64,000 nucleotides of DNA from Eledone cirrhosa. Taxonomy: Eukaryota. Below, in pieces: positions 4,541-49,515 of the stretch; positions within the stretch are counted from its first letter, which is position 1; every line of letters starts with the position of its first letter. The stretch spans positions 199,640,001 through 199,704,000 of the forward strand of contig OZ024740.1 in assembly GCA_964016885.1 (NCBI GenBank). The letters run 5' to 3'. Made by a program: the position numbers and the translations under genes. The notes under the pieces were generated by a model. The model was not told the origin of the DNA. It ran no database searches and saw only the letters and a list, made by a program, of their open reading frames with translations.

Positions 4541-4987
4541 ATACGATATTAACAAATGGAAACTATATTTATAAAACCATATTTATTTCATTATACATAT
4601 TTCAAGGACACCAAGTTAAATTATGGTGTGCTTTCATCAGATAAAATATAATATAGACCAGTTTTATAAATAAATATTGACATACCCTTAAAGAATGCAA
4701 CCATTACTGTTGGAAGCTCTCGGGAGCTTTCAACAGTAATGGTTGCATTCTTTAAGGGTATGTCAATATTTATTTATAAAACTGGTCTATATTATATTTT
4801 ATCTGATGAAAGCACACCATAATTTAACTTGGTGTCCTTGAAATATGTATAATGAAATAAATATGGTTTTATAAATATAGTTTCATTTGTTAATATCGTA
4901 TTTTTACTCCAATTATTTGTTGAGTGCTTTAGATCAGTTATAAAAATTTGCTTGTTGTATCCAAAGAATTTAAATAGAACTTTTACA
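4541..4987 (+). mobile_element. Fold-back hammerhead element, family A (Penelope pLTR-like)
   Basis: Near-perfect palindrome 4541-4901 (apex 4721/4722) plus an unpaired tail 4902-4987, with (TA)n on both sides. Homologous to 35914-36379. Confidence 0.85.
4795..4859 (+). ncRNA. Type I hammerhead ribozyme (mirror copy at 4584-4648, minus strand)
   Basis: Helix I UAUUUUAU/AUGAAAUA, core CUGAUGA, helix II AAG.ACACC..GGUGU.CUU, GAAA, minimal helix III, AUA cleavage triplet. Confidence 0.8.
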
Positions 4988-5366
4988 TATATATATATTT
5001 ATATATATATATATACATATATATGGATATATGAATATTGGAGAAATCGCTCTACTTCGCTTATTACGAAAATGTGCATTGAACACACATTAGTGTGTTC
5101 TCCATCTTGTGATTGGTAAATTCGGGAGTATAATTAAAGTAGATATCATTCTAGTTATTTTCAAATTTCACAGTAAGGATGTAAAATAATGAAATGAATA
5201 CATATATTACTTTCGGAAGAAAAAGCTAGCCCTGGCTTCAATGTTCGGTGATGGGGCATCTGGAGATTGAAGAATCACTAACACGGAAGCTCCAATAACA
5301 TATATATATATATATACATATATACATATAACATATATATATATATTGGTTTGACAGCTTTACTTC

Positions 5367-5401
5367 CCTCTGAAGAAGAGATATTATCTCGAAAATTTAG
5401 G
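5367..5401 (+). ncRNA. Very minimal hammerhead candidate
   Basis: CCU-CUGAAGA-A-GAGAU(AUU)AUCUC-GAAA-AUUU-AGG; helix III could form only in a dimer, via palindromic AAUU. Confidence 0.5.
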
Positions 5402-44199: not shown

Positions 44200-47100
44200 T
44201 TATTATTTACGTTTTGACTGGTTTTAATTTTTAAATATCTATTCTTTTCGCTTTTTTTATTTTATTTTTCAATGAACTGACGGGAACTTTCGAGTGCTTA
44301 CATTATTTTGTAATTCTTCAAGTCTTTGATCCGGTATTGTGGCACGGTCAAGGATAGAGTTATTTGTCTCGTCAAAGTAAAACAATAATGTGTTCACACA
44401 TGTTTAGAGTGGCAGCGTGTGAATAGTAAGGGTTGCTTTAAGACTGATTCTAACCAAATCGATTTCAATCGGGCCCTCTATTATCTTTATCAATATATTG
44501 AAGAAAAACATTGTTTAGTTATATTCAATCTTAAACTTTAAAAATATGGTATTTATAATGCTAAGTCTAATATCGAATAGGTTTTATTTCATATGTGTGG
44601 GGATATCAGTGTAGAAACTAAGCACACCAAAACGAAACAATATCTATTTTCATTCTCTTGGTAAAAGGACATCGAGAATAAAAACTTGGTACATATTCTA
44701 GAACAGGTCTTAACAGAACATCCAAAAAGTGGCTTAATCTTTATGGTTTGCATTGAAGCCCCGCAACAATAGGTGCCCGTATCAAATCTTGTGATTAAGG
44801 TCATTCGAACGCATTTCAATTTGGTTTTTATCATGCTTCGTATATTTGTTTATTTTCATGCATCTTCAGTAAAGCATAAACATTGTTAGATACGAAGTTC
44901 ATTATTTACTGCACCTCTTTAACTGTTAAACACCTTGGATACAGATCTAATAATGTACATGTATATTGTTTTGCATTTTCGTAGCAGTTATTATTTTCTA
45001 GCTGGTGTTTGACGAGTCGTGTATAGTAAGAGGTAAACATAATAATATTTGTGCTTCCTTTATCAGCGTACTTTGTCCGTGTTCTGTAGTTATATGAAAT
45101 TTGTCCATTTTAGTTTTGATAAATTTAGTTTTATCTTTCTTTATTCTGCAATATTGATTCGAAAATTAGATAAGTAAACGCAAGTACTTTGTTTGTCCTT
45201 TGTCTGGACTATTGATTTGTTATCAACTTATCAATAAAATATTCAGTTAATCTTAGATTCGGCAGAATACTATGATATCTTACTTCTGAGACAGTAGGAT
45301 ATTGTGGTCTTGGTAAAAATGAAGTCCTTTACAAGAAATATCGATTTGAAAATCATTAAACTTTTTCTTCTTTTAGTTGATTACCTGTGGTTTCTCAGGC
45401 ACGATATGGTGTCTTGTTATTTATGTTTGCTTTCAAAAACAATAGTCATGGATTTGTCCCTCGTAAGCATTAATCGTTCTGGTAAACGTATGTGGGGGTT
45501 ATAGAATTTCTATTTCATCGTATTCTAGTTGGTCTGCTACGAGGTTGTGATTCAGAGGAGGTATGTCGTGTATTCCAGATTCTTCTAGATTTTAACACTA
45601 TTGAAATAACTTAATTCTGTCTTTCGTAAATATTAACTGTTATTTTTCTCAAAAGAACTATTGCATACACAGAGATATAGCAACCATATTTGCATGCACA
45701 ATTACATTCATATATATATTCGATAGATTATGGATATACATATATTTATGAGTGGGAACCACAACTAGATTATCACATTTTCATATATATATACATATGA
45801 CATATATATGAAATTATATATATATCACAATAGAGTATACATGCACATAAACATACACACACATCCATTACTATTCGTTCCATAACTAAAATTTAAAGTT
45901 GTAGATTATGAACTCTATGGAACATAGTTTAATTCTATCTTTTCTCTCATTTATTCTGTGTTTCTTCTGTAACAGTTATTATTTCTGAAATATTCTAAAA
46001 CTATTTCCGTGTTCTTGCGATATTCCCCTTCATTTAAACAACATAAAGGCAACATAGAAAGCAGTCACTGATGGCTGTGATTTAACTTTGCACTTGATAA
46101 AGTGATGAAAGCTGAGAGGTGAAGCAAAGAAAAACGGTACATTTTACTTCTGAATATACGTAATTAGCAAGAGTTATCGCATGCTGCTAATATTCTCTAT
46201 GTATGTACGAATAAAGCAAACTTTTCTTCTGTCCATTCAAATGATGGACGAACATAATATAATGAAGATTGAAGAATTGTATTAGTTATTGTCCCTGTAG
46301 AACATCACTATTTTCTCCGGATTCTATGGTTTTACTTTATAATGAATATATTCATGATCTATAGCTTCACTTAAAGAACTGAACTCACTGCTCTAATGAA
46401 AATTGAGTTAGGAGTCACAGATTTCATGTCAGCTTTTCCATACATACACATGATGGACGAAACCCAGATGTTTTTTCCCGGACTGGACAATAGCCAATAT
46501 CTATGCTAACCTTCAGCAACCGCTACTACAAGTTTAATCAGATGGAAAGCGAAGACCTGGAATAAAAGGGCTTAGCACTGAATCACGTGCCATCACACAG
46601 ATGATATTAACTGTTGAATAACGTCTAAAGTTTAATTATATTATTTATTTAGTTCAGAAGAAGTCTGTGTACATTGATACAGCTCTTCCTCTGTTATCCC
46701 GTAACCACGGGAGGATTCGAAGGGGCGCCGTATTGATATACGGCATTTCTCGAGCAATTTATAACCTAGTGGAACATATCATCTCTTCACGTCATTGTTA
46801 CAATTAGTATATAAGTTAAACTGTTGTACATTGAAACATACTGGAAAGAATTTGCAAGGAGAGAATTGCAGAGAATCAATGTTCTAGACAGAAACGCATG
46901 CCCGTAGTGAATGGTCCAACAAAATAAAAGTCAGGAATATACGAATGATGAAATGAGTTAAGACACTTGTAAAAGTGTATAAAGTATACTGCGATCACAC
47001 TGATCGGACGAAGAAAAATTACTGCAGTAGCGAAAAAAACATAGAGAGCTATGTGGGTCAGAATTGATGATTTTATGCTGGAGAAATTTCCCTTCCTTAG

Positions 47101-49000
47101 GGTGTTGGTGATGCATGTGTGAGTAGAAGTCTCACCGTCCAAGATATCCTCCATTGTGGGTCTGACCTAAATTGTGTAGAGGGTTAGTTGTAGTGGTTCT
47201 TTGCTGCTGCACACCAAGTTATACCTAAAGCAGCTCGCGTATGAGGAATTATTTCCGACCGCTCCCATACTTGAAGTAGATAGAGAGATGTTCATTTATT
47301 GATATTTATCCTAAGTATATGCATATATATATATATATATATGTATATATATGAATATATACACAGAAATAACTAACCGTGGGGTTAGTTGTGGGGTCTA
47401 GTCTGCATGAAGAACTCGATGTAATACATATGTTGAAAGTGTTGTAGGTTAAAATAAATCCCGGAAAACAATAAAAAAACAAAAGGAAAACAGAGTCATG
47501 ATATAAGTTAAAACAATGAAATAAAAATTCAAGTCATTAGAAATATACTTCACTGATTTACGATCGTTTGTAGGTGATAATAATATATCGTACGCATATT
47601 TCGTTATCGAGCTATGTAGGGTTAGTTACAAAATATCAAATAAGGAATATATTTACTTACATGTATATCATCAGCCATTGTCAAAAGCAATGAAAATGGT
47701 ATTCAAAATAAGTATTATATTGAGTTCTATGACCTTATTTGGAGGTAGTTGAAGAATAAACCAATGAAATAATGTTTTGCCATATGATGTTAAGATGAAA
47801 TATAACTCACTTTAGTTGAGGTCATGACCCTTTGAAAGGAATGGTTGAATAGTGTTAAAAATAGAATTACTATCAAGAACTTAAGAAGAAAAAGATTGCT
47901 ATATTGATAGTGGAATGTACATGGTGGAGTGAAGTTTAAACAGGCATGTAAAAATTAACTGTTGAGTTGTGTTGTATTGAATTTTAAGGTGAATATAAAT
48001 AAGTAAATATAAAATATACAGAGATAACTAGGATAAATATAGATAGGTAAACTAATGGACATAACTAGGAAGGATAATATATTAAAAGATGAAAATTATA
48101 ATAACATAATAAAATATAATAACATAATAATATAATATAATGTAATATAATTTAGTACAGTATGGTGCATTGTGTATAGTATAATATAGCGTATGATGTA
48201 TCACAAAATATAAAATAGTAAATATTATCAGGTGGGTCTATGTATAAGTAATCAAACTCAGATAAATCCATGTTGACATATAGTCAAAAGGCATAATATT
48301 CTTAGATTACAAAAGTACATATATTCACATATATAGATGGAGGTATAATTACATTTATACTCCATTAAAAACGTACATACGCATCCATAGATAGAAACAT
48401 ATACATACACATGATGGCTGTCCCCTCGTTATCGAGTATGGCCATTGCACAAGACAAAAAAAAATAAATAAATTAAAATAAAATAAAATAAAATAAAATT
48501 TAAAAAAAAAAATAAATAAAAAAAAAATAATAAATATATATATATATATATATATATACATACATATATACATACACACATACATACACATAGACTCACA
48601 CATATATACACACATACATTAATAACAATAATAATAATAATAATAATAATAATAAACGACAACAACAATAATAATATACATATTCATATATATATACACA
48701 CACACGCACGCACATAAGCATATTTACACACACACACACACACACACACACACACACACACACACACACACACGATAGCAACTAACAGTGCTGCGATTGA
48801 ATGTGGCTTTTCGTACGATGTATTATTATCACCTAGAAACGAACGTAAAGCAGTGAAGTATATTTCGAATGACTTGAATTTTTATTTCTTGTTTTAACTT
48901 ATATGTATACACACACACATATATATATATATATATATATATATATATATATATATATATATATATATATATATATATATATATATATATATATATATAT

Positions 49001-49515
49001 ATGTATATATAATGTATTTTGCAATACACTTTATGCTTAATTAAAAGCATTTTGAAGACCGTAAGCTATTGTTTTAAAGTAGTGACAAATTCACTCACTT
49101 TAATCTCAGCAAACAGGGGAGATAAGCCGACAAGACTTGTTTCGCATTGGTTGAAGCTTATCAAGACCAACTACCCCACCTGTTCACTGAGATCATTGAT
49201 TTTAATTTCTGCCTGACCAACAACCGCTCTGCATGATCAGATCCTGATTATTTACTAGATTTCTATAAGAATATAACATCAATGATCTCAGTGAACAGGT
49301 GGGGTAGTTGGCCTTGATAAGCTTCAACCAAAGCGAAACAAGTCTTGTCGGCTTATCTCCCCTGTTTGCTGAGATCAAAGTGAGTGAATTTGTCACTACT
49401 TTAAACAATAGCATACGGTCTTCAAAATGCTTTTAATTAAGCATAAAGTGTATTGCAAAATACATTATATATACATCTATATATATATTGCTATTTCAGA
49501 GCTCCAATTCTAATA
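49001..49515 (+). mobile_element. Fold-back hammerhead element, family F
   Basis: Inverted arms 49001-49201 and ~49277-49476 with a ~75-nt spacer; tail GCTATTTCAGAGCTCCAATTCTAA(TA)n. Confidence 0.85.
49310..49353 (+). ncRNA. Type I hammerhead, U3-A8 covariant core (mirror copy at 49125-49168, minus strand)
   Basis: GGCC-UUGAUAA-GCUU(CAACCA)AAGC-GAAA-CAAG(U)CUUG-UC-GGCU; GUC triplet. Confidence 0.85.

Follow-up and report, generated by a model that had tools for sequence, protein, structure and literature searches.

Penelope-like elements (PLEs) are the sister group of telomerase. In LINE-1 twin priming, the second target strand primes inside the RNA and an inverted 5' part is produced. Among described PLEs, the EN+ elements of the Hydra clade come closest to what we report here, in that their pLTR holds both a hammerhead and a start site and that, at (TA)n, an inverted 5'-truncated copy lies beside a direct one with a tail at one end only; how such tandem and inverted insertions arise, and how the one-sided tail does, is named as an open problem in the part of that study consulted here (Craig et al. 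2021, PMC8557442). Minimal PLE hammerheads are likewise described, as we find here, with a short self-complementary helix III, with a U3-A8 variant and in opposite-strand pairs 100-700 bp apart; in contrast to our analysis, the available text ascribes these pairs to truncated PLEs and does not analyse their ends (Cervera and de la Pena 2014, PMC4209133). Metazoan non-LTR retrozymes share with the units described below their non-coding tandem arrangement, a length of a few hundred bases, a low GC content, one type I hammerhead per unit and a highly paired predicted circle (PMC7229834; bioRxiv 10.64898/2026.07.22.740005), and PLEs have been proposed, but not shown, to act as helpers of animal retrozymes (Cervera and de la Pena 2020, PMC7229834; Li, Clavereau and Pollet 2026). 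Finally, the protein of the Poseidon element PAc, a predicted dimer, cuts and extends both strands of an AT-rich target in vitro from two internal start sites that bound the tail, with hammerhead cleavage being dispensable (Frangieh et al. 2024, PMC11167929). Both strands and both tail-bounding sites recur in the mechanism proposed below; however, PAc belongs to another clade, in vitro the two strands did not differ in where synthesis started, and the portion of the report at hand does not address the pairing of genomic arms.

The window, that is, the whole 64-kb stretch of DNA analysed here, carries inverted arms at all 12 loci for which a preliminary description had claimed them, with arm identities of 76-100% (self-BLAST and family mapping); a size-filtered inverted-repeat scan recovers 11 of the 12, the locus at 37300 having arms of just 33 nt. 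All 12 fold-backs are real copies of known kinds of element, namely PLEs and retrozymes, and as elements they are quite ordinary within these classes; inverted copies, one-sided tails, TA targeting and retrozymes have all been published before. The footprint of an EN+ PLE insertion (an inverted truncated copy, a single tail and (TA)n) is present here. The window is typical of the genome and no hotspot, as it contains 13 fold-backs compared with 123 in an evenly spaced 1-Mb sample. In that sample, 77 of the 123 are flush with TA compared with 79 of 600 random placements, which supports the claimed TA targeting, even though the left end of the 26412 locus has no TA tract. The loci were said to be mostly unrelated in sequence, and they do fall into 11 genome-wide families, which bears out their multi-family nature; nevertheless, 4541 and 35914 are akin (77-78% by self-BLAST), and a relationship also links 32029 with 49001 (74-78% across a portion of the unit). 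The layout proposed earlier, with the tail-less arm first, needs amending, because the tailed arm is the left one in six loci. The one-sided tails of the window span 26-110 nt, and those reaching 77-110 nt exceed the 30-40 nt given for Hydra-clade PLEs in the consulted part of PMC8557442.

The question of whether these are independent elements or truncation products turned out to have both answers: five loci are pLTR or 3' ends of ORF-bearing PLEs, which supports the suspected link to Penelope, and five are non-coding tandem units. Family B, the pLTR end of a Hydra-type PLE, occupies 4544-4986 with a tail-less inverted arm (4544-4723), a tailed arm (4721-4986) and whole hammerheads at 4803 (+) and 4640 (-); its relative at 35916-36376 (the 35914 locus, 78% to 4541) has the tail-less arm on the minus strand, the tailed arm on the plus strand and whole hammerheads at 36015 (-) and 36192 (+). 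Family H at 5545-5895 (the 5541 locus), the 3' end of a PLE that is probably Neptune-type, consists of a tail-less arm at 5545-5687 and a tailed arm at 5686-5895, with a decayed hammerhead of the U3-A8 type. The pLTRs of two more Hydra-type PLEs are family G at 17987-18179 (the 18065 locus; tailed 17987-18123 on the minus strand, tail-less 18124-18179 on the plus strand), on each strand of which a long U3-A8/U3-G8 hammerhead is represented by its 3' half, and family K at 37205-37529 (tailed 37205-37459 on the minus strand, short and tail-less 37495-37529 on the plus strand), whose hammerhead is decayed. For two loci no parent was found, and their parent ORFs were not reached: family I at 34133-34322 (the 34131 locus), a short two-armed copy that ends just 5' of the hammerhead and has a whole motif, and family J at 41095-41305 (the 41151 locus), with a tailed arm on the minus strand, a tail-less one on the plus strand, both broken off within the hammerhead.

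Judged by ORF layout and motifs, the parents of families B, G and K are Hydra-type, each with a predicted single ORF combining RT with a GIY-YIG domain at its C-terminus. Family K offers the clearest view, as an intact 800-aa ORF is flanked by two such pLTRs (locus L047) and carries the YRDD motif of the RT, RLRW at 35 (RWT instead of RWK), DKT at 123 and CNCRIKNKC at 659, with the CCHH pattern absent when searched for; its C-terminus is 44% identical to an endonuclease-coding remnant of another Hydra-type PLE that lies outside the named loci at 12321-12869 (-) and itself matches PF01541 below the cut-off (E 4.6e-4). The whole ORF, also as an alignment, gave nothing usable in Pfam or PDB, and 21 homologs were obtained. 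In family G the tail leads into the start of an ORF (L044) with RLRW and DKT, and in family B the parent ORF, with DKT and CxCx5C, lies directly after the tail in L111/L112 and before the pLTR in L113, its RT piece matching RVT_1 weakly and below the cut-off (E 0.0045). With RW, DKT and CxCx5C but no CCHH, these parents resemble the Hydra-clade elements of the consulted text of PMC8557442. Upstream of family H, a GIY-YIG coding sequence in L186 (PF01541, E 1.6e-7) contains two Cys and, further on, a pair of His, as read from one broken copy.

The other five loci (families A, C, D, E and F) are non-coding tandem units of ~310-540 nt. Family A at 32030-33177 (the 32029 locus), a very young 310-nt tandem retrozyme, has two arms, of 1.8-1.9 units each, and a total of four minimal type I hammerheads at 32223 and 32533 (-) and at 32708 and 33018 (+). 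Family C at 25339-25994 (the 25450 locus; unit ~530 nt, period 527-531) comprises a tailed arm at 25339-25715 (-) and a tail-less one at 25735-25994 (+), with near-whole hammerheads at 25579 (-) and 25870 (+) that have mismatches in stem II. Family E at 26411-27153 places 1.4 units of 477 nt on the plus strand, with hammerheads at 26522 and 26999, beside a short inverted arm at 26411-26503, and family F at 49012-49512 (the 49001 locus) has a 316-nt unit with U3-A8 hammerheads at 49164 (-) and 49314 (+). These four families, with a descriptor match for the type I hammerhead in every unit and a longest stop-to-stop frame of 45-87 aa, show in their sequence the non-LTR retrozyme layout of head-to-tail non-coding units of 150-1000 nt. 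Family D at 28042-29155 (the 28064 locus; unit ~520-540 nt), with a tailed 1.5-unit arm on the minus strand and a tail-less arm at 28840-29155 (+), is not classed as a retrozyme even though it moves as one, because only a relic of the hammerhead shape is left and the CUGANGA-type core is absent from all 16 loci checked. It has thus spread without the core, unlike known metazoan retrozymes.

RNA folding predicts highly paired circles for the units (z -2.3 to -7.0), in most of which, when folded as monomers, helix III is absent, as expected of dimer-type motifs. The retrozyme units have no sequence match to the four PLE parents tested. They bear the full PLE footprint, in contrast to PMC7229834, in the available text of which the words "inverted" and "microsatellite" do not occur; it is likely that the retrozymes ride on PLEs, and we infer that Hydra-type enzymes would be their movers. 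Repeated variants within arrays were considered as proof of rolling-circle copying but not accepted, because their period is not kept in L034 and L036, the repetition is absent from the second arm in L027, and duplication after insertion explains them. None of the 67 mapped 5' ends of family A falls at the hammerhead cut site (unit position 120). Separately, two public sequencing runs yielded one 340-nt self-closing contig, in which circle and tandem array are not separable, and one run, maybe of the source sample, showed TA loose ends at both fixed sites; neither is counted as evidence, and there was no RNA run among the matches listed.

Arm ends follow a near-strict rule. In the 1-Mb sample, five non-tandem families supplied 44 two-armed loci that could be classified (two more were unclassifiable), of which 42 pair a tail-less with a tailed arm, and so do all 34 of family A (35 two-armed loci less L126, which is cut by an assembly gap). 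Neither this near-strict pairing nor the extra G described below was found for PLEs in the available text of PMC8557442 or in a literature search that largely covered main texts outside subscription papers. Within the 42 pairs, the tail-less arm extends further 5' in 17 and the tailed arm in six, both 5' ends are equal in 14, and the tailed arm consists of the tail only in five; that either arm can extend further counts against an artefact or a simple fold-back and favours priming at two internal RNA sites from the two cut ends. Arm lengths in family A are uncorrelated (rho 0.05, p 0.77), bearing in mind that tandem arrays grow after insertion, which blurs such comparisons in tandem families. 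Family A apices vary from one insertion to the next and are scattered across the entire unit, and where they are free of inserts (four rows with failed anchors left out), at least one base is shared in 18 of 21 compared with 47% expected. Given this variation of the apex and the frequent occurrence of single-armed copies, the palindrome is to be read as the footprint that insertion leaves, and the earlier notion of palindromic elements has to be given up, as they are not palindromic by design. Of the 19 ends inspected, 11 (among them all six Hydra-parent ends and one end each of C, D and E) are followed by a 4-bp RYTC..GARY hairpin, as against 2% of random 60-mers, with the motif having been defined post hoc from sequences already seen; its strict form is absent from retrozymes A and F.

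With a probability of about 0.72, we propose that a fold-back is a single insertion with two back-to-back PLE or retrozyme arms, primed separately from both cut ends. The PLE enzyme would cut both strands of a TA tract, and each cut end would start its own cDNA, with one start at an inner RNA site and the other 26-110 bases further 3', so that the one-sided tail would represent the stretch between the two priming sites. The two cDNAs would end independently, after which their 5' ends would be joined to each other, in most cases via one or two shared bases. What is observed here is the arms, the short/tailed rule, the independent arm lengths, the parents and the non-coding tandem units; from these we infer two priming events, with one RNA or one donor usually behind both arms. 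Donor variants are common to both arms in L017, L048, L028 and L329. Self-cleavage is probably not needed for insertion, and hammerhead dimerisation was not adopted as the cause of two-armed insertion, because family D is coreless and Naiads invert without hammerheads (consulted part of PMC8557442). Compared with LINE-1 twin priming, products of which the tail-only arms resemble, the two arms here usually have sequence in common, the second site does not vary and poly(A) is absent.

Self-priming, in which one template (possibly antisense RNA) or a cDNA folds back and is copied into a hairpin with one arm then trimmed by the endonuclease at the inner site, has been proposed for head-to-head Penelope palindromes (in the available text of PMC3846280), and the tail has been ascribed to endonuclease resolution (likewise PMC8557442). 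It would explain why both arms come from one family in 44 of 45 sampled apices, why 14 of the 42 pairs have equal 5' ends and why the window apex at 32029 is perfectly symmetric, and trimming of a hairpin intermediate at one or the other site would lead to the identical short/tailed rule. Without trimming, however, one arm has to be nested within its partner, and 22 of the 42 pairs do not show this, and extra assumptions are needed for the tail-only arms, for mixed-family apices (four were seen, every one with two tailed arms) and for the unrelated phases that are joined by 0-2 bases in family A; the two start sites seen in vitro (PMC11167929, in the part consulted) also speak against it, and we regard it as unlikely. 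The genome, with its hundreds of thousands of natural reaction products, is suited to discriminating self-priming from double priming, and the intact Hydra-type ORF with its pLTRs, together with very young non-coding templates, makes an in vitro test possible.

Less probable still is a reading implied by the earlier option of true non-autonomous elements, namely that each palindrome is a MITE-like element in its own right, which is transcribed and mobilised anew as a preformed hairpin. Families G (~35 loci per Mb), I, J and K do have apices crowded into a narrow zone in many copies; this crowding, however, falls on a start-like site of the parent pLTR, the apex sequence varies among copies even within these four families, family A apices lie all along the unit, and tailed and tail-less sides interchange freely. 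Instead of the fixed symmetric TIRs and fixed interior of a DNA fold-back transposon, the ends are asymmetric and the apices variable. An intrinsic hairpin as the cause of the family G apex was also rejected, since long copies carry different upstream sequence. Fold-back artefacts of assembly or reads are very improbable: perfect palindromes (32054-33187) and tandem arrays are indeed difficult to assemble, but the arms diverge by 0-24% and terminate at separate family-specific sites, the 123 loci per Mb and their excess at TA would have to be explained, and an artefact would not give a tail to one side alone.

Returning to priming from both cut ends, the short arms often end at one pyrimidine-A site with an extra G, which is present in 13 of 21 arms ending exactly there in family K, seven of ten in I and nine of 23 in G; in family B (three of ten) the signal is absent. 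The family G count is weak, as it falls to four of 12 after removal of bases the partner arm might supply, and that of K is inflated by search bias (four of eight in bystander copies, counted by hand). Held-out loci have the G in seven of nine arms compared with nine of 60 in the control, although just four of the nine are free of a partner explanation (three of them with G) and many held-out arms extend beyond the site. This suggests that short arms are copies of a capped leader and not random truncations, so that the extreme 5' truncation suspected earlier probably does not apply to some short arms, which end at this fixed start-like site. In ORF-bearing families, many would likely be complete copies of the capped 5' leader, which begins at the pLTR start site of the transcript and is copied as far as the internal priming site. 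A wider reading, the parts of which we hold jointly and tentatively, at somewhat short of even odds, is that one dimeric enzyme and one RNA may lie behind every two-armed PLE or retrozyme insertion, with each subunit using one of the cut strands as primer at a hairpin-marked site of its own, with 5'-pLTR priming copying the capped leader alone, cap included, and with short hammerhead palindromes being thus mass-produced while non-coding retrozymes hijack both sites. If true, this would lead to ~350,000 hammerheads in a 3-Gb genome, several-fold above the highest count in the consulted parts of the papers compared.

That number is extrapolated from the 121 hammerheads in the 1-Mb sample (2-5 in shuffles), i.e. 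~120 per Mb, compared with up to 120,000 in the entire axolotl genome in the available text of PMC7229834. Nearly all window loci had been said to contain a whole or half hammerhead; whole motifs are present in six of the 12 (4541, 26412, 32029, 34131, 35914 and 49001), a near-whole one at 25450 and 3' halves at 18065 and 41151, while 5541 and 37300 are decayed and 28064 is coreless. A canonical-core search had no match in family G because of its U3 core. Rfam assigned the window no family at gathering score, and at E<=10 no hammerhead family was among the 150 of 244 matches listed. With the type I descriptor, the window nonetheless gave 16 hits against a mean of 0.8 in 40 dinucleotide shuffles, and 13 against 0.3 at a score of at least 11, so that the motifs withstand the shuffled control. 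Among the 121 sampled motifs, helix III is short and self-complementary in 91, and 13 have the U3-A8 core variant.

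The preliminary description claimed long inverted arms at about a dozen loci, and the finding is real, with corrections: a self-BLAST of the window recovered such arms at all 12 (named by position: 4541, 5541, 18065, 25450, 26412, 28064, 32029, 34131, 35914, 37300, 41151 and 49001). The accompanying statement that nearly all carry a whole or half hammerhead holds for six loci with whole motifs, one with a near-whole motif and two with halves; it fails at two decayed loci and at 28064, which has none. A type I descriptor (CUGANGA, UUGANAA or UUGANGA; GAAA; three helices) matched the window 16 times against 0.8 in shuffles, the excess over shuffled controls that had been proposed as a test. 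The phenomenon is genome-wide, reaching beyond the window. In a 1-Mb sample (100 evenly spaced 10-kb stretches) of the 3.0-Gb, 1796-contig assembly, 121 hammerheads scored at least 11, against 2, 4 and 5 in three shuffles, and for 99 of them a TA tract lay no more than 250 nt away on the 3' side, compared with 24% of random positions, which bears out the suggested association with (TA)n. Extrapolation gives about 350,000 motifs per genome, a count to which a few tandem arrays add. Of the 123 fold-backs in this sample, 77 directly abut TA, as did 79 of 600 random placements, and 30 contain a whole hammerhead, compared with 0 of 600 shuffles. A thirteenth, decayed fold-back, absent from the original list, lies at 39027-39215 (75% to family B, the 4541 and 35914 loci); single-armed copies occur at 17802-17942 (-; family H, the 5541 locus, with a whole U3-A8 hammerhead) and 40318-40368 (+; B-like hammerhead). 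Further hammerhead families, including a 482-nt array and extra U3-A8 cores, were seen outside the window (genome loci L333, L302, L267, L266 and L265).

The elements belong to known kinds. Five loci represent non-coding tandem families, and five others are the ends of ORF-bearing Penelope-like elements (PLEs). In family B the tail (the segment between inner and outer 3' ends) continues into a reverse transcriptase-endonuclease ORF in L111 and L112. Family K (37300) lies on either side of an intact ORF of 800 aa in L047 that has RLRW, DKT, YRDD and CxCx5C and no CCHH, the Hydra signature as given in PMC8557442; the tail of family G (18065) continues into a similar ORF in L044, and family H sits downstream of a GIY-YIG domain that is probably Neptune-type. 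No parent ORF was found in the copies followed of families I (34131) and J (41151). At 11900-13520 (-) lies the 3' portion of a Hydra-type PLE that contains GC-rich insertions, its endonuclease frame at 12321-12869.

The tandem families are A (32029; 310-nt unit, many copies 99-100% identical, as many as about 20 units in one arm), F (49001; 316 nt, U3-A8 core, partly common with A), C (25450; about 530 nt), D (28064; 520-540 nt) and E (26412; 477 nt). Their longest open frames span 45-87 codons, and their predicted circular folds are 55-64% paired (z -2.3 to -7.0). Judged by sequence, four of them (A, C, E and F) qualify as non-LTR retrozymes as defined in PMC7229834. The catalytic core was absent in 16 of 16 family D loci (L127-L142); this tandem family spread carrying a junction of hammerhead shape that lacks the core. 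The 310-nt unit (32620-32929) has a high word share in 20 public runs from 17 studies and 18 organism codes, which may reflect cross-sample carry-over, close relatives or horizontal spread; in two runs it assembles at low depth into a single self-closing contig of 340 nt, which in one of the two has a variant perfecting stem II.

In every family two ends recur, an inner one and, 26-110 nt further 3', an outer one, with TA adjoining both, and the arms combine them in a regular way. In an unbiased sample of B, G, H, I and K, a tail-less arm was paired with a tailed one in 42 of 44 classifiable two-armed loci, the exceptions being one locus with two short arms and one with two tailed arms; two further loci could not be classed. 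Family A gave 34 of 34 in a search biased to full units; its arm lengths are uncorrelated, its 5' ends scatter across the unit and its apices share 1-2 bases more often than expected. Of 19 ends checked, 11 are followed by a short RYTC..GARY hairpin (Hydra parents and retrozymes C, D and E), its strict form being absent in A, F and H.

The simplest reading of this rule, we infer, is double priming, in which the two cut ends of the target would prime at two RNA sites, inner and outer, the RNA or donor usually being shared, and the two cDNAs would then be joined head to head. PMC11167929 describes in vitro work in which a PLE protein cut and extended each strand of the target, beginning at two internal positions on the RNA that delimit the tail; hammerhead cleavage was dispensable. 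One family occupied both arms at 44 of the 45 apices sampled, and some rare donor variants were present in both arms. Alternatively, the second arm could arise by self-priming on an antisense template, as outlined in PMC3846280. Among the 42 pairs the tail-less arm reached further 5' in 17, the tailed arm did so in 6, and 5 tailed arms consisted of tail alone; neither arm therefore contains the other in 22. Self-priming is tenable only if either arm can be trimmed, and it handles poorly both tail-only arms and mixed-family apices, of which four were seen (one among the sampled apices, 3 of 251 among those from search loci; L313, L152, L064 and L175), head to head with both arms tailed in 4 of 4. 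The end patterns render an open mechanistic question testable.

The short arms may be whole leaders. In G, I, H and K the 5' ends cluster at a single site, which in long copies is a pyrimidine-A and lies about 60 (G, I), 144 (H) or 160 (K) nt above the inner end. Arms ending exactly at that A were preceded by an extra G not in the parent in 7 of 10 cases for I, 9 of 23 for G, 3 of 10 for B and 13 of 21 for K, where the search favoured G (bystander copies, counted by hand: K 4 of 8, I 5 of 6), against 9 of 60 family A ends. Among 60 further loci picked regardless of that base, 7 of 9 arms had it, many others running beyond the site or ending 1-2 bases off. Such a G is usually due to a copied cap. 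For whole leaders the evidence here is suggestive, not firm. Start sites of PLEs have been located in the pLTR, their terminal repeat.

Much of this has precedent: PMC8557442 describes the inverted copy, the tail on one side, the preference for TA and the hammerheads in the pLTR; pairs of hammerheads on opposite strands and the U3-A8 core appear in PMC4209133, and retrozymes as PLE dependants in PMC7229834 and a 2026 preprint (Li, Clavereau and Pollet, bioRxiv 10.64898/2026.07.22.740005). A 2026 Octopus vulgaris repeat annotation (PMC13282606) lists recently active Penelope families, and the word "ribozyme" is absent from its accessible text. We found no published statement of the pairing rule or the extra G, the search covering main texts; supplements could hold cephalopod Hydra families.

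The window also contains a broken Helitron at 51455-56211, in which Helitron_like_N (E 3e-39) and a PIF1 helicase (E 1e-52) occupy successive frames and a coding repeat of 69 nt spans 51551-51803, and an assembly gap of 200 N at 38337-38536. One more TA-flanked family, with copies at 14130-14730, 19829-19968 and 36632-37112, ends near CUGAUGA with no GAAA after it. A 190-nt SINE-like repeat recurs in about ten copies (8850, 13523, 21960, 30537, 30734, 35590, 38047, 38824, 44012 and 60927), of which that at 30537 may be similar to an octopus SINE.
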